A DNA stretch of 64,000 nucleotides from an uncultured Gemmatimonadaceae bacterium (GTDB lineage: Bacteria; Gemmatimonadota; Gemmatimonadetes; Gemmatimonadales; Gemmatimonadaceae), in contig CAWHHI010000012.1 in assembly GCA_963829055.1 (NCBI GenBank), positions 504,696-568,695 on the forward strand. Direction: 5' to 3'. Of this stretch, positions 735 to 62,510 are shown piece after piece; positions within the stretch are counted from its first letter, which is position 1, and every line of letters begins with the position of its first letter. The notes under the pieces were generated by a model, which searched no databases, was not told the origin of the DNA, and was given only the letters and a program-made list of their open reading frames with translations. The position numbers and the translations under genes were made by a program.

Positions 735-2590
735 GTGAAGATAATCAACAAGTATGTGCTGCAAGAGCACGTCGGGCCGCTCGTGTTCGCCCTGACGGCG
801 CTCACGTCGCTGCTGCTGCTCAACTACATCGCCAAGCGATTCGGTGACCTCGTGGGCAAGGGCCTCGGCTGGTGCGTCATCGGCGAGTTCTTCCTGCTCT
901 CGGTCCCGTTCACCGTCGCCATGACGCTGCCGATGGCGGTGCTCGTGTCGACGCTGTACGCGTTCAGCCGCCTGGCGGCCGAGAACGAGATCACGGCGCT
1001 CAAGGCGAGCGGCGTCGGCATGACGCGCGTGCTCGTGCCCGGTGCTCGTTGCGGCGCCACGGTCATGGCCGTGTTCATGCTCTTCTTCAACGATCAGGTG
1101 CTGCCGCGCGCGAACCATCGGCTCAGCACGCTCCAGCAGGACATTGCCCGCAAGAAGCCGACGTTCGCGCTCAAGTCGCAGGTGCTCAACGAGGTGTCGC
1201 CGGGCAAGCTGTTCGCTCAAGGCCGACTACATCGATCAGTCCACGAGCTGGCTCCAGGTCGTCACGATCTACGACTTCTCCGACCCGTCCGGCGCCGGAC
1301 GATCTATGCGGACAGCGGCAAGATGGAGCTGGTCGGCGACGATCTCCTGCTGACGCTGCTACAGCGGCAACATGCAGGAAGTGCCGAAGAACGATCCGAC
1401 GCAGCTGCAGCGCCTGTTCTACGACATCGACCGCGTTCGCGTCGCGGAACGTCGTGAACTCGCTGACGCGCTCGGACAGCGACGAACACGTACAAGGGCG
1501 ACCGCGAGATGTCCGTCTGCGAGATGCAGAAGGAGTTCGCGTCGCACGAGCTGGACTTCGCAGGTGGCGCAGCTACTCGCTGGAGCACGCGCTGGTGTCT
1601 GCCGTACGCGAGCTGACGACGGGCACGCCCGCCGTTGCGCTCGAGCCGACGTCGTCGATGCCGCCGTCCGCCGGCATCGAGACGAGGCGAGCTCGCAGGC
1701 CGGGCACACGCTCGCTCCCGCGCGGCTTCAAGCCGCAGCTGTCACGCACGCATTGGCGGCGCGTACTGCAGCCTCATGCGCGAAGTTCGAGAAGGCGAAG
1801 CTGCCGCCGCTCGTGAAGTCGGCGAGTGCGGCCGAGCCTCCGCGCACAACAGCCAGCGCAGGATACGGCGCAAGCAGCACGACTCGGCGCCACAGCGCGC
1901 ATACTCATGGGCGGGGCCAGCACCGGAGCCGTCACCGACGCGCGCCCGTTCGAAGTCCGCCACGTGGGCGCGCCTAACGGTGCCAGCCGCCGGGGTCGCG
2001 GTCGTACCGGGCGCCGCCGATCGCGCCAGCCGCGCGCCGGTGCCCGCGCGACTGCCGGTTCCACCGCGCTGTCGTGCCAGGCGTTCATCCCTGTCGTACC
2101 GCGGGAGCCGACGTCAGCCGCCGCCGTGCTCGACGTCGACTGCGGCGATCGAGACGGCTCGCGGCCGCATGCTCGAGAACCGGACGACGATGAACCGCTA
2201 CGACGTCGAGATTCAGAAGAAGTTCGCGCTCTCGGCGGCGTGCATCGTGTTCGTGCTCATCGGCGCGCCGATCGCGCTGCGGTTCCCGCGCGGCGGCGTC
2301 GGTCTCGTGATCGGCGTGAGCCTCGGCGTCTTCGCGATCTACTACGTCGGCCTCATCGCGGGCGAATCGCTCGCGGACCGCGCGTTCCTCACTCCGTTCT
2401 GGGCCATGTGGGCCGCCAACGTGATTCTCACGATCGTCGGGCTCGTTGCTCCTGGCGCGCATGGGACGCGAGGGCGCGACGTCGCGCGGCGGAGACCTGT
2501 CGGAGCTGATCGACGCGCATACGTGCCAACCTCGCGAAGCTCGGGCGCCGGATTGGCTTCCCCGCCGAACGCCGCCACCGGACTGCCTGA
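735..2590 (+). CDS. lptF: LPS export permease LptF (several apparent frameshifts)
   Basis: MKIINKYVLQEH..., RLAAENEITALKASG, EIQKKFALSAACIVFVLIGAPI spread over ORFs 735, 1042, 1372, 1635; TGATG junction with the next gene at 2588-2592. Confidence 0.85.
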
Positions 2591-3690
2591 TGCGACGACG
2601 GACTCATTCGACCACTCGACCGATACGTCTTCTCGGAGTTCTGGAAGATCTTCATGATGACGGCGTTGGGATTCCCACTGCTGATCATCATCATCGATCT
2701 CACGGACAACCTCGACAAGTATCTCAACCGCCAGTTGCCGCGGTCGATCAGATCGCGCTGAGCTACCTGTATTTCATCCCCGATTCGATGTTCCTCGTGA
2801 TGCCGGCCGCGGTGCTGTTCGCGACCGTCTTCTCGATCGGCGCCCTAACGCGGCACTCCGAGATCACCGCGGCGAAGGCGTCAGGCATCAGCTTCTACCG
2901 CCTGACGCTGCCGATCTACCTCGGCGCGATCTTCGCGGCCGGCGCTGGCCCTCGCGCTCGGCGAGCTCGTGCCGATCACGAACTCCAAGCGCGCCGATCT
3001 GCTCGAGGAGAAGAAGTTCCGGCCGGGAAGCGATCGCTACAACTTCGCGTTCGCGGCCGAGCGCGGGCGCGTGTACAAGATCAGCTCCCTGAACGCCGAG
3101 AAGGGCAAGCTCGAGGGGCATCGAGATCGAGCGCAAAGGGCAAGGGGCTCGACTATCCGACGTACGTGCTCACTGCCGATCAGGGCGACTGGAACGCGAA
3201 GCGTGGCTGGGCGCTGACGAAGGGCGCGATCCATGTGATTCCCTCCGATACGCTCGCGGACGTCACGTTCGCGTTCGACTCGCTCCACGATCAGTGCAAT
3301 GCGTGAGGCACCGACCGGAGCTGATCGCGACGCCGAAGGCCCCGCAGGAGATGGGGTATCGCGCGCTGAGTCGCTACATTGCGTCGCTCGAGCGGTCGGG
3401 GGGCGACGCGAACGAGCTGCGCGTGGAGCGCGCGCTCAAGATCGCGATTCCCATCACCTGCATCATCATCGCGCTGTTCGGCGCGCCCCTTGCCACGAGC
3501 ACGCAGCGCGGCGGTGCCGCGTACGGCATCGGCATCAGCCTCGCGACGACGGTCATCTTCCTGATGCTGATCCAGCTCACGAAGGCGGTCGGCGGAAAGG
3601 GTCTCATCCCGCCGGAGGTCGCGGCGTGGATGCCGAACGCGGTGTTCGCGATGATCGGCACTGGTGATGCTGGCGAGGGTGAGAACGTGA
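2590..3690 (+). CDS. lptG: LPS export permease LptG (frameshifted)
   Basis: PLDRYVFSEFWKIF; RHSEITAAKASGISFYRL; KIAIPITCIIIALFGAPL; AAWMPN; split over ORFs 2446, 2969, 3294. Confidence 0.85.
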
Positions 3691-3692
3691 TC

Positions 3693-3813
3693 ATCGGGAA
3701 TGGGGAATCGGGAATCGGGAATCGAAAACCGCACGTGGCTACACGCGCGAGACACCGCGCAGCCGCGCGGTCTGCGCTAGCCGATTCCCGATTCCCCATT
3801 CCCGATTCCCGAT
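3693..3813. repeat. Inverted pair of heptamer arrays (GGGAATC)n ... (GATTCCC)n
   Basis: atcgggaatggggaatcgggaatcgggaatcg at 3693-3724 and cgattcccgattccccattcccgattcccgat at 3782-3813. Confidence 0.9.
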
Positions 3814-4662
3814 GACATTCGGCGCGCATTACGAGCACCGCCCAACCGAAGCGTTCCCCGTCATGCAGCGGACGGGGATCAAGTTCTTCCGGAAGGTCAC
3901 CCAGGGCGGGGCGCGGCATCTTCGCCGGCATCGGCCAGCGCGGCTACTTCATCCGCGACATCTTCCGCGCGTTCTCCGAGCCCGCCACGTGGGGCCGCGA
4001 GACGCTCGGGCAAATGCGGAACATCGGCGTCGACTCGGTGCCGCTCGTTATGATCGTGGCCGGGTTCCTCGGCGCGGTGACCGCGTTCCAGGCGTTCTAT
4101 CAACTCTTCGCGGGTGTCCAGCTTTCCGTGCTCGGTCTCCTCGTGCGCGGCAGCATCGTGCTCGAGCTCGGGCCGCTGCTCACGGCACTCGTGCTCACGG
4201 GCCGCGTCGGCGCGCGCATGACCGCGGAGATCGGCACGATGCGCGTCACCGAGCAGATCGATGCGCTCGAGACGCTCGCCTACGATCCGATCGCGTACCT
4301 CGTGGTGCCGCGCTTGTTGGCGGCGCTGCTCATGCTGCCCGTCCTCACGATCATTGCGAACGCGACGGCGATCGTGCAGCGCGTGGCTGACGCTCATCAT
4401 CGCCACGACCGCGACGACGAACGACTACGTGACCGGCTTGCGTCTCAGCTTCGCGCCGTTCCAGGTCGTCTACAGCGTGATCAAGGCGGTGTGCTTCGGT
4501 GGCGCGATCGCCATCGTCTGCTCGTACGAGGGCTACGTGACGGGTGCGGGCGCCGAGGGTGTGGGGCGGTCGACGGCGAAGGCGGTCGTCATCGCGTCGA
4601 CGTCGATCCTGGTGCTCGACGCGATCGTCGCGGCGGTATTTGCCCAGTTCATCGCCGCCTAA
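3812..4662 (+). CDS. mlaE: MlaE-family ABC permease (frameshifted)
   Basis: ELGPLLTALVLTGRVGARMTAEIGTMRVTEQIDALE; GAEGVGRSTAKAVV. Confidence 0.88.
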
Positions 4663-4690
4663 CGAACGTGTCGTTTCGATACGTCGCCAG

Positions 4691-4843
4691 TGTCATTCCG
4701 AGCGCGGTCTTGTCATTCCGAGCACAGCGCTCGCGACATGGGGCGTCGCGCCCGACCCGCTAAAACCGCCCGACACGGTTTCGGCCTGACGATTCCGGAA
4801 CGACACCTGCTAGGATTCGTCAGGCAATGGTCCCGGAATGACG
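4691..4843. repeat. REP/MITE-like palindromic element with GTCATTCCG...CGGAATGAC ends (degenerate copy)
   Basis: Two tandem tgtcattccgagc starts (4691, 4711), inner cctgacgattcc/ggattcgtcagg stem, end cggaatgac; same ends as the element at 42553. Confidence 0.65.
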
Positions 4844-4862
4844 TAGTTCCAACCAATCCACT

Positions 4863-5744
4863 ATGAAACGACGAGACGAAGTTCTCGTCGGCATCCTGCT
4901 CACGGTCGGCGTTGTCATCGGCGTGCTCGGCACGATCTGGCTCGTGCGCGGCGGCTTCTCGAGAGGCTACCCACTCTACTCCCGCTTCAAGTGGGGCGCC
5001 GGTGTGAAGCAGGGACAGCCCGTGCGGCTGGCCGGCGTGCAGGTGGGCGTGGTGTCGGACGTCGAGCTCGACCCCAAGGGCACGATTCTCGTCACGATGA
5101 GCATCGAGAAGGTGTACTCGGTGCCGCGGAATTCGGTCGCCGCGGTGGTACCGGTCGGCATCTTCGGCGATCAGGAGATCGCGCTGACGCCGGCGGAGCC
5201 GAGCCCGATCTTCCTTCAACAAGGGTGACAGCGTTCCGCCAGCACTGCCAAAGGCAGGGCTTCCCGAGCTGACGGCGCGCGCCGATACGATATCGCAGCG
5301 GCTCGATGACGTCGCGAAAGCGGTACAGGTCGAGCTCGTCGCGGGCGGCGGCATCGCGGACCTCCGGAAGACGCTCGCATCGACCAACGACCTCGCGCGC
5401 TCCCTGAGCGTGATCGCCACCGAGCAGTCGCGACAGCTCTCGCTCACGCTGACGCGCTTTCGGAACACCGCGGCCGCGCTCGATTCGACGCAGCTCGATT
5501 CGACGCTGCGCAATCTGCAGCTGACGTCGCACAATCTCGCGGCGTTCACGGACTCGTTGCGCGGTACGGCGCAGCAGCTCAACCGGTGCTCGCGAAGGCG
5601 AACACGGGTGATGGAACGTTAGGCAAGCTGCTGAACGATCCGGGCCTCTACCACGACCTCCGCCGCCTGACGACTCGCCTCGACTCGCTGACGCTGGACT
5701 TCAAGAAGCACCCGAGGCGGTACATCAATCTCGAGATCTTCTAG
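4863..5744 (+). CDS. mlaD: MlaD/MCE-family protein (frameshifted)
   Basis: N-terminal TM, GVKQGQPVRLAGVQVGVV MCE motif, helical tail GTLGKLLNDPGLYHDL...KHPRRYINLEIF. Confidence 0.85.
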
Positions 5745-6048: not shown

Positions 6049-6098
6049 TCCAACATCAGGCGAGTAGCGCCTAACGGTGCCCCACGTCCACCGCTCCG

Positions 6099-9000
6099 TT
6101 AGAAGCTGTACCGCATTGACACCTGCGTGCGCCAGAAGTTGCTGACCGTCGCGCCCGGGGCATACTCACCGCCAGCCGGCGGCGTGAACTGCACCACCGG
6201 AATCGCCGAGTTCGCGTTCACGTTGCCTGTGACCACGCCACCCGTGCCGACGTAGCCGACGTGCGTCACGAGCGGGACGTTGCTGTTCGTCGTCGTCGGG
6301 GTGACGAATGCGCGACCCCACTGCTTGTTCAGCAGATTGCCGAAGTTGAAGATGTCGAGCTGAATGGAAAGCCGCTGGTCGGCGATCAAGGGCAGATTCT
6401 GGCGGATTGCCAGGTCGACCTGACTCACGAACGGCTGACGGCAGGAGTTGCGCTGCAGGATCTCGCCGCGGTGATCCTTGAGACACTCGGAGCTGTTGAT
6501 GAATGCGTCGAAGAGCGATGCCTGCTGCGCCGCCGAGCTCAGAACCGTCGTCACACCACCCGTCGTGCGCGTGATGTCCCGGAAACGGATCTCGTTCTGA
6601 TCGCCGACGTTCCTCGGAATGTAGATCAGATCGTTGCCCTGTACGCCATCACCGTTCAGGTCACCGGCACCACCGCTGCCGCCGTAGATGTAATCGTGCG
6701 GCGGGCCCGACGCGCCCTGGTAGAAGACAGAGAAGTCCGTCGCGAGCTTCTTCAGCCAGTTGAGCGTGTACGTGCCGCTCGCGAGAATCTTGTGCGGCTG
6801 ATCGAAGAGACTGATGCCGGTGAACGCATCTGCCTGCGGCCCGGAGAGCGTACGACCGAACTGCCAGTTCGAGATCGCCGTGCTCGACGTGAAGCTCTGG
6901 ACGTCGCGAGCGCGTGAGTACGTATACGCCAGCATCCCCTCCCAGTTGTCCGAATACCGCTTCCGCAACTGGGCGGTGAGGTTGTACGCGAAATCCTTGC
7001 TCTGATTCCGAAGATCGATCGCCGTGGTGAACCGCGCCGTACCACCATTCGCCGCGACAGCCGGCGGGAGGATCAGCGTCCGGTTTCCGTTCGCGGCGGC
7101 GACGGTCGTGATGTAGAGCGTGCGCCCGCCCTGCCCCGTGCCCTGCGGCGCGGTGACGTTCTCGCTCACCGTGAACAGCTGGTTCAGCGTGCGCGAATAG
7201 AGGCCCTCGAGCGTACCCACGAGGTTCCACGGCAGACGGCGGTCGTACGCGAGCGACACGCGCAGCGGCTGCGGGAACTTCAGATCCTTCGCCAGGAAGT
7301 TCACGTCGCCAATGGGCTTCGCGCCCGACCCGTTCCGGCACGTGTTGATGTTGGTCGGATCGACCTGGAACGCCGGTGCTGGCGTCGTCGCCGTGTTGCA
7401 GTTGAGGAACGTGATGATGTTGCCCGAGTTCACGTATGCGTTCTCGAGCCACACGTACGGCGGCGTGCCGACGAAGAGCCCGGCGCCACCGCGGAGCTGA
7501 TTCGCCTGATTGCCCGTGATGTCCCAGTTGAAGCCGAGACGCGGGGAGAACTGCAGCGACGTCCCCGGAATGTCATCCGTGCGACGGCCATACGCGGAGT
7601 CGATCGGGGCGTTGTACGCGACGTCCTTGAGGAACGTGCTGAAGTCGAAGCGCATCCCGGCCGTGACGGCGAAGCGCGGCGAGACCTGCCACTGATCCTG
7701 CGCGTACACCGCGTTCTGCAGCGCCGAGAAGTAGACGTTGCCGTCGTCCGAAAGCACGATCGCCTTGCGGAAGGTATTTGGATTGCCGGCAGCGAGACTG
7801 TCGAGGTTACGGAAGCTCCACACGCCTAACGAGCTCTGCGTGAACAGGTTCCGAAGCCAGACGTACTCGTTGCGCGACCCGACGGTGATCGTGTGGTTGC
7901 CCTTCGGGGCGAACGTGTAGTTCTCCGTCAGCTCCATCGTCTCCGTATCGAGCTGATTGCCCTGCGAGAACTGATCGGCCCCGGAGATGATCGTGGCGTT
8001 CCCGTTAGGCCCGACGACGCCGCCGCTGTTGATCGTGACCTGCGGGAAGGTGCTCTGGGGATCGCGTCGGTTGTACCACTTGTTGTAGCCGAGGAACAAT
8101 TCGTTCGACGCGCCATTCTTGAAGTTCGAGAACAGCTGGAGCACCGGCGCGAGCTTCGTGTTCGTGAAGTCGTGGAAGTTGCTCGAGTACACCGCCGTCG
8201 TCGGGCTGCGGTTGTTCTGCTGACGTAGCCGCTCGCCCTTCGCGTAGTTGAAGCGGAACACGAGACGGTTCACGTCGTTTACGCGATAGTCGAGCCGCGC
8301 GAACGCGTTCGACAGCGGGTTGTCGATGTTGGTGTAGCCGGCCGTCCCGAGGCTCGTCGCGCCAAGTCCCGCCATGATCGTCTCGAAGCGCTGGCGATCC
8401 GCGTCGTTGACCGGAAACGCCTGGGGCGATCCGGCAGGCTGACCAGCGTACGGACCTGTGACCGGCGACTGCTCCTTCTGAAATTCCGGCGCGATGAAGA
8501 AGTGCAGCCTGTCCTTGATGATCGGGCCGCCGAGCGAGAACCCATACTGTGTTCGCTCGAACGGCGTCGCACGGAGAATGTTCGTATCGGCGCCGAACTT
8601 CTCGTTGCGATAGAACCAGTAGGCCGAGCCCTGCAGGGTGTTCGTCCCGCTCTTGGTGACGGCGTTGAGCAGCAGACCGCCGAAGTTGCCCTGCCGAACA
8701 TCGAACGGTGCGAGCAGCACCTGAAACTCCTTCACCGCTTCGATCGACACGTTCTTCGCATTCACCTCGGCGCCCGGCGCACCGGTGGAACCGAGACCGA
8801 ACACGTCACGCTCGCTCGCGCCATCGATCTGCACGTTGTTCATGCGGTTCGACATGCCACCGCCGGAGTAGCCTGGTCCCGACGCGGACACCTGCGGCGT
8901 CAGCCGGATGAAGTCCGTGAGGTTGCGGGTGAGCGTCGGGAGACGCTGAATGGCCGTGTCCGAGACGATGGCCTTCGTGCCCGTGTTCGTGGGCGAGAAG

Positions 9001-9686: not shown

Positions 9687-12600
9687 TCAGAAGCCGTAGC
9701 GCACTCCAAGCTGCATTTGGTACGCCGAGCCGACGTGCCGGCGGTCATACTTCTCCGTCGCCGGATCGAAGGTGAAGATCCCCTGCGATCCGTTCGAGCC
9801 GACCAACGCGCCGTTCGTCTGACCAACGTGGCTCAACAGCGGAACCGAGCCGCCACCCGCGGGCGGGAGCGGCTGCTGACCCCAGTCCGGATTCAGCAGG
9901 TTGAGGAAGTTGAAGACGTCGAGCTGCACGGCGAACGATTGGCCGAGTATCGCCGGCAACGATTGGCGGAACGACAAATTCACGGTGTTCGTCCACGGCG
10001 ACCGGCAGCTGTTTCGTGTCATGATCCGGCCACGCTGCCGCGTGAGGCAATCCGTGCTCGTGATGAACCGCTCGAGCGCCGAGCGCTGCTCGGCAATCCG
10101 TTGTTCCTGCGCTGCCGGGGAGTTGTCCGCGCCCGCAACTGGAGAGACCCCGCTGAACCGGATCTCGGCGTCCCTGGCGACATCGGCCGGGATGTAGATC
10201 AGATCGTTGCCCTGTGCGCCGTCGGCGTTCAGGTCGCCGAGACCGCCGCTGCCGGCGTATACGAAGTCGTAGTTCGACCCCGACCGTCCGAGATAGATCA
10301 CCGACACGTCGGTGCGCGTGGTGAACGAGAACGTGCCGAACGCCACCACGCGATGCGGCAGCTCGAAGCGCGAGCGATCGAGATTCTGCGAATACTGGTC
10401 GCCGGCGAGCGCGCGACCGAACCGCCAGTTCGACGTCGCGGTGCTCGACGTTAGGCTCTGGATGTCGCGCGCCTGCTCGTACGTGTACGACGCGTGCGCC
10501 TCGAACCAGTTCGTGAAGCGTCGGTTGAGCGAGGCCGTGACACTGTACGAGTAGTCCTTGCTCGCGTTCTGCACGTCGATGACGTTCCGCCGTTCGGCGA
10601 CGAGGACCGGCTCGGAGACGCCGGTCGTCGCGATCGTGCCGTACACCACGCGCCCGTTCCGGTCGAGGCCCTGCTGCCCCGCCAACGCGAGGTTCGTGTA
10701 GAAGAACGTCGACATCGAGCGCGTATACATCCCCTCGACCGACGCCACCCACGCGTCGCCGATGCGACGGTCGTAGGCGAGCGACGCACGCGCATACTGA
10801 GGAAATCGCAGGTCGCTGCTGAGGAGCGCGATGTCTCCGCTCGTGGCCGCCGTCGTGCCGTTCGCGCACGTGGAGGGCGGCGCGGCCGCATTCTCGGTGG
10901 TGAACCGAGGGACCGAGCCGGCCGAGACACACGTCAGCTGCGCGAGGCCCGTCCCCGCGTTCTGGAACGCGTTGCCTAACCACACGAAGGCGGGCCGTCC
11001 AACGAAGACGCCCACCCCGCCGCGGATCTGCTCGCGACGGTCGCCGAGACGGTCCCAGTTGAAGCCGATGCGCGGCGAGAACTGCAGGTTGCCTGACGGG
11101 ACCTCTTCCGTGTTCCGGCCATAATCCGCGAGCACCGACGGATTCGCCGCCGGCTTGTCGAACAGATACGGCACGTCGACGCGGAGGCCCGCTGTGACGA
11201 CGAACCGGTCCGTCGCCTGCCAGCGATCCTGCGCGTACAGTCCGAACTGCGCCGCGTCGAACCGCGCGTCGAGCGGCCCGCCGAGACTGACGCCCGCCTG
11301 ATAGCGGCTGGCGTCGCCACGCGCGAGCGAGTCGAGGCTCCCGAACTCCCACACGCCGTACGAGTTCTGCGCGAAGAGATTGCGGATCCGGTAGAACTCG
11401 TTCTTCGTGCCGGCGGTGATGCGGTGCCTGCCTAACGGGAACGTCAGGTTGTCCGTGAGCTCCACGACGTCCTGATCCACTTCCGTTCCCTGCGAGGAAT
11501 TCTCTGCGCCGGCGCGTAGCCGCGCAGTCCCGCCCGTCAGGGTGGGCGCATCGACCTGCACCTGCGGCGCGAGCACCGCGGCGTCGCGGCGATCGCGAAT
11601 GCGACTGTAGCCGACGATCAGCTCGTTGCCCGCCCCACCCTCGAAGCTCGTGAAGAGTTGCGCGACGGCGCTCCCCTTGACCGAGTTGAATTCGTGCGCG
11701 TTGGACGTGAATCGAATGAGCGTCGGATCGCGCGCCAGCACCTCGTCCTCCGCCCGGCCGTAGTTGTAGCGCAGCACGAGCCGGTTGTTCACGCTCGGCG
11801 AAATGTCCACGCGCGCGAAGATGTTCTGCAGCGGATTCGCGTTGCGCACCGGCCCCGCGGAACCGGCATTGATACCATACCCGCTGAGCAGGCTGCTGAA
11901 GCGGTCGATGTCGCTGGTCGTGACCGGAAACGGCTCCCCGGTCTGGCCGAGATACGGGCCGGTCGCGGGCTCATAGCGCTCCTGGAACTCCGGCGCGATG
12001 AAGAAGTGCACGCGGTCGCGAATGATCGGGCCACCGAGCGAGAATCCGAATTGCGACTGCCGGTATTCCTGGTCGCGCACGTAGTCGACGTTTCGCGCGA
12101 GCCCTTCGCTACGCGTCGAGAGGAACGCGGTCCCGTGCAGGTCGTTCGTGCCGCCGCGCGTCACAGCGTTCAGGAGAAGTCCCGCGAAATTCCCCTGCCG
12201 TACATCGAACGGTGCGAGGAGAACCTGATACTCGCGGACAGCCTCGAGGCCGATCGACTTGCCACGCGCCTGGCCGCCCGGCTGTCCCGTCTCGCCAAGC
12301 CCGAACAGATCGTTCTCGCTCGCACCGTCGATCTGAATGTTGTTGAGGCGATTGTTGACGCCGGCGCCGGAAATGCCCGGCCCCGCGTCAGACACTTCGG
12401 GCGTGAGGACGGCGAAATCCGTGAACGTCCGGTTGAGTGACGGGAGCCGACGCAGAACCGAGTCGGAAACGATGGTCGCGGCCCCGGTGCGGTCCGACGA
12501 CATGATCGGGTCAGTCTCGGTCGTGACGGTGACCGTGCTGAGGATGAACGTCTGACGCTGGAGGATGAAGTCCAGCGTTAGGTTCTGGCTCAGGGTGAGC

Positions 12601-12899: not shown

Positions 12900-14299
12900 G
12901 CCGTTTCGCCCGCCGCGCTCCGAGAGCCGTCTGGAGGTGCGAGCCTTCTGCCGACGGTCGCGTAATAGACCGGAATGCCCACCGCGATCACGGCGAACAC
13001 CGCGATCGTCGGCCAGCGCGTGCCGGGGTCGATGACCGCGTTCACCAGCAGGTACAGCGTCGCGAGAATGAACAGGATCGGAACCAGTGGATACCCGGGC
13101 GTCCGGAATGCCGGTGAGTATCCCGGGCGTCGGCGGAGCACGAAGATCGCCGCGACGCCTAACACGTAGAACGGCAGGATCGCCGTCACGAACGCGTCGG
13201 CGAGGTCCTCGAACTTTCGCAGCAGCACGAACGTCACGCCGAGCACCGCCGCGAGCGCGATCGCGTTGACCGGCGTCCTGAATCGCGGATGCACCGCCGC
13301 CATCGGCTTGAAGAACAATCCATCCTCGGCCATCGCGAAGAACACGCGCGGGTTCGCCAGCATCGTGGAGTTGAGCGAGCCGAACGTGGAGAGCATCACG
13401 GTGATCGCGACGAACGCAACGCCGATCGGACCCATCACGCGCTGACCCACATCCGCCGCGACGAGCTTCGACGTCCGGATCTGCTCGATCGGGAGGACCG
13501 AGAGATACGCGAGATTCGCCAACAGGTAGATGAACAACACCGCCAGCGAGCCGAGAATGATGGCGCGCGGCAGATTGCGCTCACCGTCCTTGACCTCGCC
13601 ACCGGCGAACGTGAGATCCGCCCACCCGTCGAATGCCCAGAGCACCGAGACGAGCGCGAGCCCGAATGGCGCAAGCGAGAAGCTTCCCGGAGGGAAGAAC
13701 GGTGTGAAGTGGCCGCCCGTCTTCGGCAGCTCGATCGAGAACGCGAGCAGAATCACGAACAGCAGGCCACCGTACTTCGCGAGGGTGGTTGCCGCCGTCA
13801 CCATCGCGCTCCAGCGAATCCCCACGATGTTGAATATCGACGTCAGTACGATCGCGGCCGCCGCGGTGTAGCGCGCATACGAGTCGTACGGCGCAACGAG
13901 CGGGTCGTAACCGAGGACTCTGAGGAAATACTCGGCGAACGTGATGGCGATGGCACCAATGGCGGCAGCGCGAATGATCACGAGCTCTGCCCAGCCGAAC
14001 AGGAACGCGGGGAGCCTTCCCCAGCCTTCGCGCAGAAAGACGTAGATGCCGCCGGTTTTCGGCAGGGCGCTCGCGACTTCAGCGAGCGAGAGCGCACCGC
14101 ACATCGCGAGCATTCCGCCGACGACCCACACCGCGAGCATGGCACCGGGCCCCGGCAACCTGTTCGCGATGCCTGCCGGTGACCGGAAGATTCCTGAGCC
14201 GATGGTGATACCGACGACGATCGAGACGGCGCTCCACAGTCCGAGCCGTCTCGGCAGTCCGTCGGATGGTCCTTCGCTTGCCGCTGGAGAGGGTGACAT
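12896..14299 (-). CDS. APC-family amino acid permease
   Basis: LPRRLGLWSAVSIVVGITIGSGIF; GGIYVFLREGWG; WAFDGW; GEVKD. Confidence 0.92.
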   Translation of the reverse strand: MSPSPAASEGPSDGLPRRLGLWSAVSIVVGITIGSGIFRSPAGIANRLPGPGAMLAVWVVGGMLAMCGALSLAEVASALPKTGGIYVFLREGWGRLPAFLFGWAELVIIRAAAIGAIAITFAEYFLRVLGYDPLVAPYDSYARYTAAAAIVLTSIFNIVGIRWSAMVTAATTLAKYGGLLFVILLAFSIELPKTGGHFTPFFPPGSFSLAPFGLALVSVLWAFDGWADLTFAGGEVKDGERNLPRAIILGSLAVLFIYLLANLAYLSVLPIEQIRTSKLVAADVGQRVMGPIGVAFVAITVMLSTFGSLNSTMLANPRVFFAMAEDGLFFKPMAAVHPRFRTPVNAIALAAVLGVTFVLLRKFEDLADAFVTAILPFYVLGVAAIFVLRRRPGYSPAFRTPGYPLVPILFILATLYLLVNAVIDPGTRWPTIAVFAVIAVGIPVYYATVGRRLAPPDGSRSAAGETA

Positions 14300-17573: not shown

Positions 17574-17840
17574 CCCGCGTAGGACGCGAGAACGCCGTGT
17601 CACGGCACACTCGCTGACGTGCCGCTCGGGCAAACGCCACGCCACGCGGGCGGGTTGCTGACTCGCGCGCGGGATCGTCCTGACGTCGAAGGGCGAGCGG
17701 ATTTTCGAGGTGCAACCTAACCGCTCGTGGCCCTTTCGACTGTCTTCCACTTCCGCGGTTCTTCGACGTCGCATGCTCGCGCCACTCGCGCTCCTCCTCG
17801 CTCTCGCGTCGCCGCCGCATCGCGCCGTTGCCGAATACGC

Positions 17841-46105: not shown

Positions 46106-47017
46106 GACGCCGCCTCGGCCATCGGCGACAACGCGTTAGGCTCGACCCGCGCGTTCGCCGGCGCGAGCGACGCGATGAGCGCGCCGCGCTCGAGCAGCTC
46201 CCGCAAACCGAGGTTGAGCACCGCGAGTCCACTCACGCGCACGGCGAACACGCCCTTGCCGAGTGCGATCGCCGTCGGAAAGACGGCCAGCACGTGCTCG
46301 GCCCCGTGGTGCACGGCGAGATGAAAGACAGCCTCGATGGCTACCGGCGTCGTCGGACGAGCGGCACCGATACGCCGCACGCGGCCGCGATCGATGGGCG
46401 TGACACGGTCGGCGATGCGATGCAGCTCGGCCGCGTCCCGCGACGCGATCAGAATGGCTCGGTCGAACGCTCGCAGCGTGATGAACAGATCTCGAAGACG
46501 GTCGAGGGAGTCGTCACTCAGCCCATCGAGTGGCTCGTCGAGCACGATGACGCGACGGTCGGCGAGAATTGCCTGGGCGACGCCGAAGCGCACGCGCGCG
46601 TCACGACTCAGCGATCGCAGGCGGCGACGTCGCGCATCCTCGAGACCGAGGTCTTTGACGACCGCGTCGACACGCGCGACGAGTCTGCGTCGCGTGTACG
46701 CCCGCGAGGACCGCGAGCCGCGCGAGCGCGTCGGTTACGCGCCAACCGCCCGGAAGCGCGAACGGCTGCGGCAGATATCCAATGCCCTCGCGCTCGACGA
46801 ACCGCCGCGGCTCGATACCATCGACGCGCACCGTGCCGCTGGTGGGCCGCTCGTGACCCAGGATGAGCGCGAGTAGCGTGCTCTTCCCGGCGCCCTCCGG
46901 CCCGGCGAGGCCGACGATCTCTCCGGCCCCGACCCGCAGCGAAACGTCATCGACTGCGCGTGACGGGCGTCCGAACGTCGGCGCGTACGTCTTCGAGACG
47001 TGACTGAGCTCGATCAC
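46102..47017 (-). CDS. ABC transporter ATP-binding protein (frameshift near 46680)
   Basis: GPEGAGKST in ORF 46601-47017; VLDEPLDGL in ORF 46102-46593; signature motif degenerate. Confidence 0.8.
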
Positions 47018-48066
47018 CGCACCGGCGCTTGCGCGCCGGGCGCCTGCGGGGCGAGCGTCGGAAGCGGAGTGCAGCTCGTCCAGGCACCAGGGCCCGCGCG
47101 CTGCATGAAGTTGTTCGCCTCCTGTACGCGACCGAGGCGCATGAGCACACAGCCAAGGTAGCCCTGCGCTTGCTTGTCGCTTGGGCTGAGCTGCACCGCG
47201 CGCACGTAGAAGCTGCGCGCGAGATTGAGTGATTGCAGCGCACCGGGCAGGTTGCCGCCGTTGATCTGCGCCGTCGCCTGCGCGAGCAGATGGTTGCCCA
47301 TCTCCCGCTGTGCGATCTCGTTCTGCGGGTCGAGCTGAATGGCGGTCTGCAGCTCGCGCACGGCGTTTGTCGCGTCGCCTTCCTCACGCGCCATGCGCGC
47401 GAGATAGACATGCGGTGTCGCGTCCTTGGGATCGTCCTTCACCGCCTGCGCGAACGCGTTTCTCGCGGCCGTCTTGTTGTTCGCCGAATAGGCCGCAATG
47501 CCCTGCTGCAGGGCACCGCCCGATCGCGCCGTCGTGAAGTAGTAGATGCCCCACCCGATGGCGCCTAACAACACGAGCAGGCCGATGAGCGCGATCAGTG
47601 GAAATCCGCGACGTCGTCCGGCGCCCGGAAATGCAGGCGCGTCGGGCGCGACGGCTACTGGCGCCGGCGTCGCCAATGCTGCTGCGGCAGCGGACGCCGT
47701 CGGGGCAGCACGTTCCTGACGCAGCGCCGCCTCGAGTTGCTGGAAGCCAGTCCGCGCTGCACCAATGTCGGCGGCGGACGGTCGATAGTCGGTGCGCTGC
47801 GCTCGCTCGTGCGCCGCACTGAACTCGACGAGCGCGTGCGCCTGGTCGAGCGTCAGCAACTCGCGCTGGCGGACTTCCCGGATGAGCGGTTGGCTGGACA
47901 GCGAGGCCGACCCGATGAGCGCGCGCATCGACGTCTCCGCGGCCTGCCACCCCTCGATGATATCGGCCGCGAGGTCTTCAGGGTCGCGCGCGAGGTCGAG
48001 GCGGCCGATTGCCGGCCTCGCCTGGTCGAGCGCGGCGAGGGCGGCTCTCTGTTGCGATGTTGTCAC
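47014..48066 (-). CDS. Membrane-anchored TPR protein
   Basis: Central TM, then TPR-like repeats (AVKDDPKDA, AIQLDPQNE, AVQLSPSD). Confidence 0.8.
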   Translation of the reverse strand: MTTSQQRAALAALDQARPAIGRLDLARDPEDLAADIIEGWQAAETSMRALIGSASLSSQPLIREVRQRELLTLDQAHALVEFSAAHERAQRTDYRPSAADIGAARTGFQQLEAALRQERAAPTASAAAAALATPAPVAVAPDAPAFPGAGRRRGFPLIALIGLLVLLGAIGWGIYYFTTARSGGALQQGIAAYSANNKTAARNAFAQAVKDDPKDATPHVYLARMAREEGDATNAVRELQTAIQLDPQNEIAQREMGNHLLAQATAQINGGNLPGALQSLNLARSFYVRAVQLSPSDKQAQGYLGCVLMRLGRVQEANNFMQRAGPGAWTSCTPLPTLAPQAPGAQAPVR

Positions 48067-52248: not shown

Positions 52249-52520
52249 TCAGGGCGTCGATCTGGGAGCCGGCGCTGGCCCCCATGCCTTGACGATTGCT
52301 TCTCCCATTCGTGCCATCGTGACCTGCGGCTCGGTATCGATCACCCAGCGTTGGTCGACGTTCTCCTGGAGCATCTGCATGTCTTCGTTGTGCTCGAGGA
52401 TCGCGAGCATCGACGAGTCGGCGGCTGGACTCACGGCGCGTCCGCGCGCGAGAAGCTCGAACAGCCCGGCCATCTCGTTAGGCGTCGTGACGCCGAGCCC
52501 GTAGCCAGTCGATGCCCGAT
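52249..52520 (-). pseudogene. Remnant of a class A beta-lactamase-like serine hydrolase
   Basis: YGLGVTTPNEMAGLFELLARGRAVSPAADSSMLAIL... only; no SxxK region and no KTG segment. Confidence 0.55.
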
Positions 52521-56235: not shown

Positions 56236-57374
56236 TGACCCACGGCATCAGGCACGACGCGACGCGTAGCGGAGACAAGCCTTTGGAGCAGCATCGGCGC
56301 ATCGCCCTCGTTCTCGGGGGCGGCGGCATGAAGGGATTCGCGCACATCGGAGTGTTGCGTGCGCTCGAGGAGGCCGGCGTGAGACCCACGTGCTTCGCCG
56401 GCACCAGCATCGGCGCATTGATCGCGGCCGCGTTCGTCGGCGGCATGTCGCTCGATGAGATGGAGCGGCGCGCACTCTCGCTTCGTCGACGCGACCTGTT
56501 CCGGATCAACCACGTCGGCATGCTGCTCGAGCGCATGCGGTCTCCGTCCATCTATCTCGAGGAACCGTTGCGCGCGTTGTGCTCGAACGCCATTCCGACG
56601 GGAACGTTCGATGAATTGTCGACTCCACTCCTCGTCAACACCGTTGATGTCGAGCGAGGCACGCAGGTCGTCTGGGGGTTGCCGGGACTTCGTGACGTGC
56701 GCGTCGACGATGCGGTGTACGCGTCATGCGCGCTGCCAGGCTTCTTCCCGCCGGGGCGGGTGGATGGTCGGCTGTGCATCGATGGCGGCACGATCGACAA
56801 CCTGCCCGTCGGCATCGCGGCGCGACACGCCGACGCGGTCATCGCCGTGGACGTTGGGTCGAGCGACCTCTCGCACAACTCCGACTCCGCGGCCCAGGGC
56901 TTCGCCGCGACCTACATGCGCGCTGCCACCACGATGATGCACGCGCTGCAGTTGGCGCCGCTGCGCGAGTGGAGTGGCCCGCCGATGTTTCTCATCCGGC
57001 CGCGCCTCGGTCACGTCGGATGGCTCAGCTTCTCGCACACGCCCGACGTCATCGCAGAGGGATACCGGGCGGCGCGCGAGGCGCTCAAGGAGCTGCCGGA
57101 GTGCCTGGCCGCAAAGGGCGGCGTTTTCCCTCGTGCACCGTATCGGCTCGCGGTCGATCGCGACCTGTGCACGGGCTGCGGCTTCTGCGCCGCGATCGCG
57201 CCGGAGGCGATGGCGATGGATGCCCGCGGCAAGGCGTACCCGAAATCGGAGATCGTCGACTGGTGTTCGGCGGACGGCGACTTCGTGCGTCACTGTCCGA
57301 CGGACGCGATCAGTGCGACGCGCCTAACGACTGCAGTCGACGAGCAGCCCATCCCGCAGAAAGAAGTAGCGTAG
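56236..57374 (+). CDS. Patatin-like phospholipase with C-terminal ferredoxin domain
   Basis: GGGGMKG, GTSIG, DGG; C-terminal CTGCGFC...HCPTDAI. Confidence 0.88.
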
Positions 57375-57379
57375 AGCCA

Positions 57380-58447
57380 TCAGCCATCAGCCATCACCGC
57401 TGACGGCGCGCTCATGGCCCGCTCGATCAGCTCTCTGCCGATCCGCTCGTACGTGTCGACGGCGTTATGCAGCTCGGCGATGTCGATGAACTCGTCGTCC
57501 GTGTGTGCGACGTGGATCGAGCCGGGGCCGAACAGGTACGGCGTGCCCCACGCCGGCAGCGCCGGAATGTCCGTCGCGAACGCGACGACCGACGTCTCGA
57601 TGCCCGGAATGGTCCCGAGGCGCACCGACGGAATGCTCACGCCCACGTCGACCGCCGCACGATCGCCGATCCATCGACGCACCGCCGTCACCACATCCTC
57701 CACTGGCCCGACCAGGCGCGCCATCAGTCGCGCCTCGGCTGCGGGGGCGACAACGTTGTCGGCCACACCGCCCGACAGCATGCCGATGTTGATCGTCGTG
57801 TTCCCGAGCACCGGATCGATTGGCAGGTCGACGCTCTCAATCTCCGCGAGCAGCCGTACGAGGCCCAGCGTCGCCGACTGACCGAGATGCGGGTAGGCCG
57901 AGTGCGCGGCGCGTCCCGCGGTGCGGACGGTCATGCGAACGGCGCCCTTGGTTCCAAGCGCGAGCGTGCTCTCGGTTGGTTCGCCGTTGATGAGCGCACG
58001 GCTCGTCGCGGGCACGAGCCCGCGCTTGTACGCATCGTTCGCGGCGTGCGCGCCGTCGTGACACGTTTCTTCGCCCACCACGAACAACAGCGCCACTGGC
58101 AGCTTCGCGTCTCGCAACCGCTCGGCCGCGCAGATCATCGCCGCCGCGATGCCCTTCGCGTCGCAGGCGCCTCGGCCCGTGATGCGGTCGGCGGTCCGAC
58201 CCGGCGCGATGTAGGGCGGCACCGTATCGAGATGGGTCGACAGCGTGACGAGCGGAGCATCGCTCGCCGTCGCGAGGATGTCGTCTCGCCCGGGTGAGAC
58301 CGGAATGCGCTGCGTGGTCCAGCCGCGGCCGGCGAGCAGCTGCTCGACGAACGTGATGACCTCGCCCTCATGGCCACTCGTGGACTCGATCCGCATGAGA
58401 TCGAGCGTGATCTCGACGACGTCGGGAGGCGTCTGCATGGGGTGCAA
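57380..58447 (-). CDS. M20-family metallohydrolase (ArgE/DapE-like)
   Basis: THLDTVP; GRGACDAKG; GEE; GEPT; AHTDDE. Confidence 0.9.
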   Translation of the reverse strand: MHPMQTPPDVVEITLDLMRIESTSGHEGEVITFVEQLLAGRGWTTQRIPVSPGRDDILATASDAPLVTLSTHLDTVPPYIAPGRTADRITGRGACDAKGIAAAMICAAERLRDAKLPVALLFVVGEETCHDGAHAANDAYKRGLVPATSRALINGEPTESTLALGTKGAVRMTVRTAGRAAHSAYPHLGQSATLGLVRLLAEIESVDLPIDPVLGNTTINIGMLSGGVADNVVAPAAEARLMARLVGPVEDVVTAVRRWIGDRAAVDVGVSIPSVRLGTIPGIETSVVAFATDIPALPAWGTPYLFGPGSIHVAHTDDEFIDIAELHNAVDTYERIGRELIERAMSAPSAVMADG

Positions 58448-58612
58448 AGCTAGCCGCGCGGAGGCGCGGCACGCGAGTCGGCCGCCAGGGCCTGTGTCGC
58501 AGACGGCTGCGCGACGGTGACCCTGCTCACGCCGTTAGGCAGTCGGGCACCGCTCGCCGTCGGTAGGGCACGTGCGTCGTGACGCAGAAGCGGGCGCAGC
58601 GGTCCTTGGGCA

Positions 58613-59515
58613 ATGCTGCGATTCCCGCGCCACTTGGCCCATGCGCTCAGCCTCGTTCTCACGATCGTGGCAGTGCGGCCGGCATCGGCGCAGGGGCTCG
58701 AGCGCGACCAAGCTGCTCATGTTCGGTACCTCGCGCTGAACGTCGCCATCGGGACGACCGCGTCGATCGCACGCGCGGTCGTCTCAGGCCGGCCGCTACG
58801 CTCGGCTCTCGTGACCGGAGTGTTCGGCGGCTCGTTGATGAGCGCCGGCATGGAGCTCATCGGCACCGAATCACCGCCAGTCCGCTTCGCCGGACTTCAG
58901 CTCACGGCGGTGGGGGCAAGCGTGGCGCGTAACGCCGCCAGCGGGGCGCCGATGCTGTCCGACATCACACTACCGATCTACCCGTTGTACGTGCGCGTGC
59001 GGCCGGGCACGTCGACACCCATCACCGCGCGCGTGTCCGTGATGACAGCGACGCGCCTCGCCACGCTGCTCACCGCCGGCGGGCATCCGACCGTCGACTG
59101 GCGCGCCACGGTGGCGACAGGCGCGCCTGTTCTGCGGTCCCCGCGCTGGCGATTGCCATCCGAGAGCTGTCCCCCGCCCTGCGAAGGATCATTCGCGCAG
59201 CATAACGCCGGCGTCATCGTCTATTCGTCGAGCGCGGGCACGGACTACGATCTGCGTCGCACCCTCGCGCACGAAAGCCTTCATCTCGCACAGCAGACGC
59301 GCGACGCGCTGCTCGACGCGATCCCGGCGAGCGACGCGGCGCTCGGCCGCCTGGGTACGAGCGGTCGATTCGTCTCGCGCTTCTTCGTCCTTGACGTCCT
59401 CATGCCACTGCGCGCTGTGGACGAGGGTGAAGCACGCATTCGAGGTGCGCCGCGCCGCAATTCGTGGTATGAGACCGAAGCCAGGGCATTCGCGCCCGGC
59501 GGCGCGCTCCGCTGA
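58613..59515 (+). CDS. Hypothetical secreted/membrane protein with HExxH
   Basis: Signal peptide ASA; LAHESLHLAQ...WYETEA. Confidence 0.6.
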   Translation: MLRFPRHLAHALSLVLTIVAVRPASAQGLERDQAAHVRYLALNVAIGTTASIARAVVSGRPLRSALVTGVFGGSLMSAGMELIGTESPPVRFAGLQLTAVGASVARNAASGAPMLSDITLPIYPLYVRVRPGTSTPITARVSVMTATRLATLLTAGGHPTVDWRATVATGAPVLRSPRWRLPSESCPPPCEGSFAQHNAGVIVYSSSAGTDYDLRRTLAHESLHLAQQTRDALLDAIPASDAALGRLGTSGRFVSRFFVLDVLMPLRAVDEGEARIRGAPRRNSWYETEARAFAPGGALR

Positions 59516-59695: not shown

Positions 59696-62490
59696 ATGAC
59701 ACATCCGAACACCTTCGGCAGCCGCGCGACGCTCGATGTCGCGGGGCGGCAGTTCACCATCTACCGCCTCGGCAGCGTCGCATCGCTCCAGGGCAGCACC
59801 GTGGATCGACTGCCGTTCAGCCTGAAGATCCTGCTCGAGAACCTGCTCCGAAACGAGGACGACGCGTTCGTCAAGCGAGCCGATGTCGAGGCGCTCGCGC
59901 GGTGGGATGTGAAGGCGAAGGTCGAGAAGGAAATCGCGTTCCGCACGAGCCGGGTGCTGCTGCAGGATTTCACCGGCGTCCCCTGCGTGGTGGACCTCGC
60001 CGCGATGCGCGACGCGATGGTCAAGCTCGGCGGCGATCCGAAACGCATCAACCCGCTCCAACCCGTCGATCTCGTGATCGACCACTCCGTCCAGGTGGAC
60101 GAGTATGGCAGCGAGGCTGCGTTCCTGCTGAACACCGAGAAGGAATTCGAGCGCAATCGCGAGCGCTACGTGTTTCTCCGATGGGGTCAGAACGCGCTCG
60201 ATAACTTCCGCGTCGTGCCGCCCGGCACCGGCATCTGCCATCAAGTCAACCTCGAGTACCTCGGACGCGTGGTGTTCACGCGAGAGCAGGACGGCGCGAC
60301 GGTCGCCTACCCCGACTCGCTCGTCGGCACCGACTCGCACACAACGATGATCAACGGACTCGGCGTGTTGGGCTGGGGCGTCGGTGGCATCGAAGCGGAA
60401 GCAGCCATGCTCGGCCAGCCGGTCTCGATGCTCATTCCCGAGGTCATCGGCTTCAAGGTCCACGGGAAGCTGCCGCCGGGTGCAACGGCCACGGATCTCG
60501 TGCTGACCGTCACCGAGATGCTTCGCAAGAAGAAGGTCGTCGGCAAGTTCGTCGAGTTCTACGGCAGCGGGCTGTCCACGCTCCCGCTCGCGGATCGCGC
60601 GACGATCGGCAACATGGCGCCCGAGTACGGCGCGACGATGGGCTTCTTCCCCGTCGACGCGCAGACGCTCGAGTACCTGCGCCTAACGGGACGCGGCGGC
60701 GACCACGCGCAAGCTGGTCGAGGCGTATTGCAGGGAACAGGGGTTATTCCGGACCGATGACATGCCGGACCCGATCTTCACCGACACGATCGAGCTCGAT
60801 CTCACGACGGTGGAGCCGAGCATCGCGGGACCGAAGCGGCCACAGGATCGCGTCCCGCTTCGCGAGACGAAGCCGATGTTCCGCGACGCGCTCAAGGCCG
60901 ATCTCGAGCGCCTTGCGGCTGGCGGTGGTAAGGCAACGGTGAAGCGTGCGACCGCGGTCTCGGCGGCGCCGGAGCTCGCGCCCTCGGTGGTGGCACTCGC
61001 ACCAGAGCAAGTGACTCCGGACGACGCCGGTGTGCCCGTGGAAATGAACGGCGCGACGCTTCACGCTGCGACACGGCTCTGTCGTGATCGCGGCGATCAC
61101 GAGCTGCACGAACACGTCCAATCCCTCGGTGATGCTCGGCGCGGGATTGCTCGCGCGCAACGCCGTGGCGAAGGGGCTGGAAACGAAGCCGTGGGTGAAG
61201 ACGAGCTGTGCACCTGGCTCGAAAGTGGTGCGAGACTACTACGAAGCCGCCGGTGTCATGCAGCCGCTCGAGAAGCTCGGCTTCCACATCGTAGGCTATG
61301 GCTGCACGACATGCATCGGGAACTCGGGACCGCTGCCCGAACCGGTCGCGCAGGCTGTCGAGGATAACAAGCTGGTGGTCGCGGCCGTGCTGTCGGGCAA
61401 TCGGAACTTCGAGGGCCGCGTCAACCCGCTCACGCGCTTCAACTATCTCATGTCCCCGCCGCTCGTCGTCGCGTTCGCGCTCGCCGGACGCATGGACATC
61501 GACTTCAACACCGAGCCGTTAGGCGTGGGCACCGACGGCCCGGTGTTCCTTCGTGACATCTGGCCGGCGCCGGCCGATGTGGACGCCGAGATCATGCGGT
61601 CCGTCAAGTCGGAGCAGTTCGTGCGTCAGTACGCGAACGTGTTCGAGGGTGACGAGGAGTGGCGCGCGATCGACGTGCCGACGGGCGCTCTGTACGCGTG
61701 GAGCGACGACTCGACATACGTGAAGAACCCGCCCTACTTCGAGGGCATGACGATGCAGCCGCCGGGTGTCCGGCCCATCACCGGCGCGCGGGCGTTAGGC
61801 ATGTTCGGCGACTCCATCACCACCGACCACATCTCACCGGCCGGCAACATTGCGGCGGCGAGCCCCGCCGGGAAATGGCTCATCGCGCAGGGTGTGCCGA
61901 CCAAGGACTTCAACTCGTACGGCGCGCGCCGCGGCAACCACGAAGTGATGATGCGCGGCACGTTCGCCAACATCCGTCTGCGGAACGAGCTCGCGGGCGG
62001 AAAGGAAGGCTGGTGGACCGCCACGGAACCGGGCGCGGAGCCGCGGCCGATCTTCGATGTGTCGATGGAGCTGCAGCAACAGGGGACGCCGCTCGTCATC
62101 ATCGCCGGCAAGGAGTACGGGACCGGATCGTCTCGCGATTGGGCCGCCAAGGGAACGGCGTTGCTCGGTGTGCGCGCGGTGATCGCGGAATCGTTCGAGC
62201 GCATTCACCGCTCGAATCTCGTGGGCATGGGCGTGCTTCCGCTCGAGCTCACGGGCGGCGACACGCGTCAGACGTTAGGCCTGACGGGATTCGAGACGTT
62301 CGACATCACCGGACTCGATGACTCGCTGCGTCCGCGCGCGACGTTGACGGTCACAGCACGCGCCGCCGGCGGCGAAGCGAAGACGTTCACGGCCCTCGCC
62401 CGGATCGACACGCCCGAGGAGCTCAGCTACTACAAACACGGCGGGATTCTGCCGTACGTCCTCAGACAGCTCGTCGGCGGTCGTGCCTAA
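59696..62490 (+). CDS. acnA: Aconitate hydratase A (frameshifts near 60700-60760 and 61065)
   Basis: [55 protein letters not shown]. Confidence 0.96.
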
Positions 62491-62510
62491 CGGCCGATAG
62501 ACACCGGCAC

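Follow-up and report, generated by a model that had tools for sequence, protein, structure and literature searches.

A hyper-abundant, nearly strand-neutral octamer written into genes of some Gemmatimonadaceae and Chthoniobacterales and present in phages

We analysed a stretch of 64,000 nucleotides (the window) from an uncultured Gemmatimonadaceae bacterium (assembly GCA_963829055.1, contig CAWHHI010000012.1, positions 504,696 to 568,695), in which genes such as mlaE, a ccmA-like gene and the aconitase gene carry copies of one non-palindromic octamer. The exact octamer occurs 29 times, 12 times as GCCTAACG and 17 times as CGTTAGGC, as compared with a mean of 1.08 and a maximum of 5 in 100 dinucleotide shuffles of the window. 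The GC content is 66.3%. A sequence-only reading had reported at least 29 copies, and all 29 of its coordinates are exact. Predicted coding frames are overlapped by 26 of these sites, the exceptions being those at 1972, 6069 and 58533, and the coding sites mostly read TTA-GGC, CCT-AAC, CTA-ACG or GTT-AGG. The window also contains 13 variants that keep the CCTAAC core and five GCATAACG sites.

The Leu-Gly reading TTA-GGC is found on the plus strand at 7824-7831, 11430-11437, 19206-19213, 38271-38278, 43452-43459 and 44214-44221, and on the minus strand at 40129-40136, 42264-42271 and, within aconitase, 61517-61524, 61793-61800 and 62273-62280; the minus-strand site at 5617-5624 reads CGT-TAG (stop)/TTA-GGC. 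CCT-AAC (Pro-Asn) is used on the minus strand at 8003-8010, 20150-20157, 31191-31198 (in an ABC ATPase gene, ccmA by context), 45284-45291, 46134-46141 and 52476-52483, CTA-ACG (Leu-Thr) at 10449-10456 (minus), 57322-57329 (plus) and 60681-60688 (plus, aconitase), and GTT-AGG (Val-Arg) at 25181-25188, 32695-32702 and 42529-42536 (all minus). Two plus-strand copies contain TAA stops, that of the C-terminal piece of a frameshifted mlaE (GCCTAACG, 4657-4664) and that of aconitase (62485-62492). Both stops, and the use of rare codons in genes such as aconitase and ccmA, are as the sequence-only reading had described them. The remaining copies lie in a frameshifted lptF region outside the predicted frames (GCCTAACG, 1972-1979, plus), in an intergenic region directly after a stop (6069-6076, plus) and in a further intergenic region (58533-58540, minus). 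The frames of lptF/lptG, mlaE, mlaD and aconitase are broken (at 735-5744 and 59696-62490), most likely by long-read frameshifts.

Among the sites with an altered flank, CCCTAACG is present at 2843-2850 and 38151-38158 (both plus), GCCTAACC at 10974-10981 (plus) and 41270-41277 (minus), ACCTAACG at 12576-12583 (minus) and 18768-18775 (plus), GCCTAACA at 13157-13164, 18273-18280 and 47563-47570 (plus) and 33468-33475 (minus), and TCCTAACG at 27685-27692 (minus) and 41359-41366 (plus); ACCTAACC at 17715-17722 (plus) differs in both flanks. The sequence-only reading had put the number of such core variants at about 13; two of the positions that it gave, 18767 and 33467, are corrected to 18768 and 33468. 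The GCATAACG sites are at 16995-17002, 28116-28123 and 57463-57470 (minus) and at 24227-24234 and 59200-59207 (plus).

The abundance of the octamer extends to the entire source genome (G000; 7.78 Mb in 20 contigs), which holds 5,004 copies, or one per 1.55 kb, divided between the strands as 2,457 and 2,547; the strand bias is thus as slight as had been supposed. All 20 contigs carry it, at 0.48-0.80 per kb, and it is the top 8-mer of the genome against Markov models of order 1, 2 and 3 (38, 49 and 19 times expectation). Its flanks show codon periodicity and nothing else, which indicates a word rather than a mobile repeat. In our own gene calls (6,385 confident frames), 3,125 octamers are internal to coding sequence where codon usage predicts 93.7, and this 33-fold excess upholds the earlier claim of an abundance above chance under the codon-aware model it had called for. 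The octamer fills 862 of the 1,463 places where x-Pro-Asn-x would permit it, 1,258 of 5,573 for x-Leu-Gly, 589 of 2,873 for x-Leu-Thr and 416 of 3,667 for x-Val-Arg, and it contains 203 of 800 TAA and 175 of 1,666 TAG stop codons. The odds ratio for Pro-Asn calculated from these counts, about 42, corresponds to a force that is weak at each site yet steady. The two orientations relative to the coding strand are split 1,849 to 1,654. Pro-Asn itself is 1.18-1.44 times as frequent as expected before V, A, D, E or G and 0.68-0.89 times before L, P, T, S or R, a bias that, in a comparison made without a motif-poor control proteome, is only suggestive of a cost of the octamer at the protein level.

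The sites are not sequencing errors. Systematic miscalls, which had been raised as a possible source of the pattern, are ruled out by six congeners (all six carry the octamer, at 350-680 per Mb), by a plasmid of a named isolate with 778 copies and by contigs from four other runs, which span eight sites of the window between 38000 and 47500 and place none of 40 listed differences (251 in total) within an octamer. No RNA that might hold the octamer was present among the matches listed.

Octamers keep their distance from one another. In the source genome the density of pairs follows 1 - A exp(-d/L), with A = 1.03 and L = 141+/-20 bp for pairs in the same orientation and A = 1.05 and L = 140+/-17 bp for pairs in opposite orientation, and control words have no such short-range hole. 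The mean spacing is 1,530 bp, so that the exclusion reaches over a distance ten times shorter. A second genome, G014, has 15 gaps under 50 bp and 10 of 50-100 bp where 41 and 37 are expected, and the deficit is also seen at named loci of both phyla discussed below. Four variants are enriched 8-17 times in the source genome, namely ACCTAACG (827 copies), GCATAACG (583), GCCTAACA (435) and CCCTAACG (428), and all four avoid consensus sites as well (0.29-0.47 of expectation within 100 bp). Changes to the core are scarce (GCTTAACG 24, GTCTAACG 24, GCCTAATG 13), and the look-alikes made of preferred codons, GCCGAACG, GCCTGACG and GCCTCACG, show no avoidance.

The octamer is unevenly placed with respect to genes. 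Its intergenic density is lowest, at 0.37 per kb, where genes diverge (23 sites in 62 kb), and amounts to 0.89 between co-directional and 1.41 between convergent genes; it peaks at and just 3' of stop codons. The observed/expected ratio climbs from 0.64 to 1.24 as GC content at third codon positions becomes more native-like, and very conserved genes hold fewer octamers than expected (21 versus 29.9). None is found in an rRNA operon or in two stretches of 42-50 kb with foreign-looking genes. Those two motif-free stretches (C6:5440-55037 and C11:1-42000) carry foreign-looking housekeeping genes and are probably chimeric or mis-binned sequence, possibly not real acquisitions; the octamer is usable as a detector of contaminating contigs.

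Orthologous positions in five congeners, at about 75% identity, reveal how sites come and go. Three of ten aligned exact sites (those at 32695, 40129 and 44214) and one variant, identical in its letters (33468), are kept in all five, and three (31191, 38271 and 46134) are private to the source genome. The site at 45284 is kept in four, that at 42264 is exact or a flank variant in four, and those at 42529 and 43452 are kept in three. Lost sites are often offset by another a few hundred bases away: the two congeners without the site at 43452 have one at 43848, and three of those without the site at 46134 have one at 46476. All changes are substitutions, and the comparison of orthologs that had been proposed thus shows sites that originate by point substitution. 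The sites employ rare codons and are distributed almost evenly over the strands. A repetitive extragenic palindromic (REP)-like repeat, GTCATTCCGAGC...GCTCGGAATGAC, is also present in the window at 4690-4730 and 42550-42705 and in hundreds of copies genome-wide, and its stretch 42565-42703 is missing in some other strains.

The octamer is lineage-restricted, but the earlier term lineage-specific needs amending, since its occurrence is patchy within the Gemmatimonadales and extends to another phylum and to phages. In addition to the six congeners, three of 24 other genomes of the same sample are rich in it. In a sample of 350 genomes of the phylum, 15 exceed 100 per Mb and nearly all the rest fall below the reversed-word control; rich genomes number 11 among 82 of the same family, 4 among 144 of a sister family and none among 4 of a third family or 120 from outside the order. 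The unpublished genomes G013, G079, G118 and G199 sit among the motif-poor rows of our tallies, and none of our conclusions depends on them alone. G236 and G293 have about 950 copies per Mb, whereas G289, of the same genus, has 13 and shares none of 25 aligned sites. A quickly built tree of a gene found throughout the order, with 32 rows, requires seven changes of the rich/poor label, at least three of them forced by strong branches. A three-site pattern, which detects dense genomes only, was found at 34 loci among 185,579 species genomes, 16 in Gemmatimonadaceae/Gemmatimonadota and 18 in Chthoniobacterales/Spartobacteria/Verrucomicrobiae, with none elsewhere. Of the loci so named, 15 from Gemmatimonadaceae/Gemmatimonadota can be aligned with the source genome across 18-82% of their length, with 65-80% identity, and 18 from Chthoniobacterales across 0-19%, in keeping with a source in the Gemmatimonadaceae.

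In the Chthoniobacterales (Verrucomicrobiota) the word is the 9-mer GCCTAACGA, whose ninth letter is A in 87% of 442 sites and whose copies are likewise mutually spaced out. Five genomes of this order have 640-1,430 per Mb, and 9 of 120 others exceed 100 per Mb. Samples of 40 kb reveal smaller dialects among Gemmatimonad lineages, including GCCTGACG in G030 (L024-L025; 15 versus 2.0 expected in 20 kb) and GCCCAAC in G293 (L016-L017; 33 versus 6.7 expected in 40 kb). The octamers fetched from motif-poor relatives are of another kind, forming the 3' termini of attC hairpins that belong to integron cassette arrays; an origin or terminus array as the basis of these clustered copies is accordingly rejected. 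Such chromosomal arrays are long and have uniform attC of 90-100 bp in several Gemmatimonadales (L001-L010; G021, G019, G023 and G029). Our search of the openly available literature turned up, among the papers listed, none on this word.

Mobile DNA carries the word as well. Plasmid 1 of Gemmatirosa kalamazoonensis (NZ_CP007129.1) has 374 + 404 octamers as compared with 20 control words. Paired-site scans of viral sequences listed 39, 47, 2 and 18 loci, and a further one 80 out of more than 120, mostly chance matches. In L111/L130/L145, a single lineage whose genes include those for a virion protein and a lysozyme, CCTAACG occurs on both strands at 3.0-3.4 per kb, about twice the density of the densest host sample (G014, 1.72 per kb); its sites sit as rare codons and stops, and none of 28 gaps is under 95 bp where 8.8 are expected. 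Its virion protein was compared at 79 other loci, of which 78 are not enriched in a check that omitted 40 loci without flanks, and it occurs in 3 of 301 genomes of the order, where the best match (45-47%, in the motif-poor G419) is no better than those to unrelated phages. Three phages have 34, 23 and 9 words versus 7, 7 and 3 control words (G439, G442 and G441). The first of these is 44 kb long and 98% complete and encodes (L352-L354) RecT, an MT-A70 methylase, a P22-like portal protein and a beta-helix protein 40% like a protein of the source genome, with no integrase among its open reading frame calls. L374, L377, L589 and L599 are further motif-rich viral contigs; L231, L228, L272 and L244 were not counted, as their words lie in local clusters or longer repeats, and L253, L273, L376, L402 and L407 are doubtful cases. 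The A at position 9 that is typical of Chthoniobacterales is used by L108 (11/11), L374 (10/11) and L589 (16/20, two of these A's being required by the search pattern) and not by L111, G439, L355, L377 or L599, and thus the ninth letter divides the viral contigs into the two host spellings. A search for prophages found terminase PF03237 in 2 of 31 genomes.

The sequence-only reading had suggested an uptake-like or nucleoid-protein-binding signal, and a protein-read word imposed on coding sequence remains the most likely kind. The graded flanks of the word, its indifference to orientation and its short reach point to a reader protein that attaches to double-stranded DNA and acts locally. We tentatively favour an intracellular, sequence-specific binder of the nucleoid-associated type that acts over about 150 bp, although our confidence in it stays short of even. 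Such a reader would recognize the core C-(C>A)-TAAC, with flanks in the order of preference G>A>C>T before and G>A after and with an additional A at position 9 in Chthoniobacterales, and would be indifferent to orientation. Each bound site would confer a small benefit over about +/-150 bp, perhaps by bending, wrapping or shielding DNA, so that site-creating point mutations would be weakly favoured even against codon preference, while a second site nearby would add nothing. Sites would be kept out of promoter regions, and plasmids or phages resident long enough in such cells would gain sites in the host spelling. The persistence length of DNA is about 150 bp. An intracellular binder accounts for the phages, the plasmids, the avoidance of promoters and a reach close to that length, and its gene may have been gained several times or moved between the phyla. 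A more specific proposal, which we consider unlikely, is that resident DNA is licensed by a host protein, itself spread horizontally, that binds GCCTAACG(A) about every kilobase, and that phages forge the mark in the host dialect, some to saturation.

Several observations weigh against an intracellular binder or weaken the support for it. No reader gene was found among the candidates compared with motif richness. There is no 10-11 bp (10.5-bp) peak between sites in the source genome, which a DNA-bending protein might leave, and the depletion at promoters could be plain sequence constraint. Apparently native DNA contains motif-free gaps of 10-16 kb, and the octamer is therefore no essential licence. 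The viral loci were chosen by patterns that add two sites each, the density in most motif-rich phages, at 0.5-1.3 per kb, resembles that of hosts and does not exceed it, and two of these phages resemble lambda or Mu and are hence probably temperate. The hosts of the phages are suggested by spelling and by the one 40% protein match. Finally, two uptake signal sequences (USS) within 100 bp do not add to uptake in Haemophilus (PMC7811141), and so spacing does not exclude an uptake function.

Further candidates for the reader were rejected. Topoisomerase IB (PF01028) is associated with the word but not required: among Gemmatimonadales it was found in 13 of the 23 motif-rich genomes and 9 of the 23 motif-poor ones, and among Chthoniobacterales in 13 of the 14 with a rich or intermediate count and 6 of the 18 that are poor. 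The source genome has two poxvirus-like type IB topoisomerases (C4:50277-51404 and C19:84898-85953), of a family found in 41 of 78 genomes. The arms of its dif site do not match the word, which dismisses a XerC/D half-site. A comparison of 580 kb (15%) of G444 with the proteins of the source genome, in a hunt for genes shared between the phyla, revealed only ordinary shared genes.

To our knowledge, the well-known hyper-abundant words are DNA uptake sequences (DUS), USS and the highly iterated palindrome HIP1, each confined to one lineage. The octamer is hyper-abundant as they are, but each of them has tested features that it lacks, and the same holds for Chi and KOPS (FtsK orienting polar sequences) and for attC. 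Uptake is the most serious rival, a real though lesser possibility, and supposes that a receptor at the pilus tip or in the periplasm prefers the word, which uptake and recombination then spread. The USS of Pasteurellaceae and the DUS of Neisseriaceae are likewise short, non-palindromic words present about once per kb on both strands, of point-mutation origin and accommodated within genes; they too differ in dialect between lineages, are infrequent in rRNA and in recently acquired DNA, and are redundant in close pairs (PMC7811141, PMC2397512, PMC2817400). The absence of the octamer from the rRNA operon and the foreign-looking stretches, its rise with native base composition and its lower count in very conserved genes fit such a syndrome, as do the type IV pilin locus in the source genome and the presence of ComEC in 47 of 48 genomes; ComEC itself is rejected as the reader because it is present almost everywhere, motif-poor genomes included. 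In contrast, the octamer is unrelated in sequence to DUS and USS and lacks inverted terminator pairs (0 of 1,197 and 3 of 1,198 opposite-orientation neighbours are under 20 bp apart). It forces rare codons, where USS favour preferred ones (PMC2817400), and strongly avoids short range, where 23% of USS have a neighbouring USS no more than 100 bp away. A reach of 140 bp would need very short donor fragments, whereas the spacing of Neisseria DUS matches conversion tracts of 1.1-1.7 kb (PMC2397512). The saturation of a phage lineage beyond host level is not expected from uptake, and a word that is patchy within a family and shared with another phylum would be a poor self tag. No ComP-like gene of the kind suggested earlier was found to track the word: no receptor pilin family (ComP; ComN predicted) specific to rich genomes was found among pilins from 30 of 65 matched loci in five genomes and the source genome.

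HIP1 (GCGATCGC, cyanobacteria) is a similarly abundant octamer of genes, enriched 15-300-fold and of debated function (PMC5861425, PMC13756078). Unlike HIP1, our word is non-palindromic and without matching methylation, CGATCG is not enriched, and the spacing signal seen at short range is a hole of 140 bp, as opposed to a periodicity of tens of kilobases in HIP1. An Elhai-type repair model described for HIP1 (PMC5861425) has a counterpart here in a ratchet without benefit, in which a protein-bound or nicked site would serve as the strand signal and site-creating mismatches would be fixed unless a site lay nearby in a short repair tract. This would explain the orientation-blind exponential exclusion, the action on plasmids and phages and the nearby compensating turnover, and the four rare-codon sites kept in all six genomes fit drive and selection alike. 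The existing model, however, requires methylation, which is not seen. We know of no methyl-free sequence-directed repair system of this kind and regard the ratchet as distinctly unlikely. A methylation-linked word, such as a target of HIP1, bacteriophage exclusion (BREX) or MmeI type, is a still poorer candidate and is largely refuted for N6-methyladenine and N4-methylcytosine. GCCTAAC has what we take to be the penultimate-A shape of MmeI-family sites, and Eco57I/MmeI-type genes occur in five of five genomes tested. Yet the methylome of the 778-copy G. kalamazoonensis strain contains RGATCY, ATGCAC and CCAGN7TCA only (PMC3974934), making these two marks on the word unlikely, and the graded flanks are unlike a methylase site. 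Phosphorothioate genes (DndE, DUF4007; PF08870, PF13182) matched neither the five motif-rich genomes nor any control genome, so that this blank is uninformative. Since 5-methylcytosine is poorly detected by the sequencing method behind that methylome, its methylase family (PF00145) was searched separately; it was not found in the source genome and was detected in 3 of the 25 rich genomes as compared with 9 of the 23 poor ones, so that it does not track the word, and the suggested methylation link is left unsupported for this family in 22 of 25 rich genomes. The Eco57I-type gene at C8:73494-78314 (L506; also L507-L509 and L526-L555) encodes about 1,080 residues with a methyltransferase fold (DPACGSG, NPPW). 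Mostly single-copy and syntenic, it was detected in all but one of 64 Gemmatimonadales and in none of 16 Chthoniobacterales, and we read it from its sequence as a putative order-wide orphan methylase, retained like Dam or CcrM; no alignment column separates 18 rich from 12 poor genomes, which together with its order-wide occurrence removes it as the reader. A polar signal like Chi or KOPS, also non-palindromic and enriched genome-wide, is equally hard to sustain. When contig C16 is divided at its dif-like site near 560800, where the GC skew switches and a gene for a Xer-family recombinase lies 20 kb away, the octamer has a slight leading-strand excess (368:297, p 0.007), and phages could gain from a Chi-like shield. 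However, KOPS are split 95:11 there, the 55:45 skew of the octamer is about the size of its coding-strand bias, and same- and opposite-orientation pairs exclude each other equally, which is indirect evidence against a directional reader; the replichore check that had been proposed thus shows no polarity of the Chi or KOPS kind. The last rival, improbable as well, is that the octamer is an attC/attI core bound genome-wide by an integron integrase or a derivative. The integron attC core has the consensus RYYYAAC/GTTRRRY, and the identity of the octamer to it is exact; the few copies of low-copy relatives are attC ends, and the enriched variants presumably resemble variants of these. The source genome has an IntI-like gene (C20:208008-208943; L032, L052) lacking Lys and His residues to which we ascribe catalytic roles, but it has no cassette array, its sites are single, unpaired, within genes and without hairpins, and an attC pattern search found one candidate. 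Nor does the word track IntI, a homolog of which was not found with our query in 8 of 25 rich genomes and was found in 18 of 23 poor ones, with a similar degenerate copy in the motif-poor G289 (L054).

What is new here is the orientation-blind 140-bp law, the functional variants, the avoidance of promoters, the saturation of a phage lineage, the matching of dialects and the set of excluded readers. If the licensing proposal is true, licensing would be a self-recognition or chromatin system of two phyla that accumulates a site instead of avoiding it and dispenses with methylation, and the site may descend from the half-site of a tyrosine recombinase, the integron core. The cultured carrier G. 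kalamazoonensis KBS708, the word-free sister genomes and the one-letter variants that appear dead from their counts make the alternatives directly testable, and the spelling could also serve to match phages and plasmids with their hosts and to expose chimeric contigs. In parts of two abundant soil phyla, and in their viruses, codon choice is reshaped by a single word, which would be either a third uptake system, and the first that two phyla have in common, or a new DNA-binding self mark that is copied by phages.

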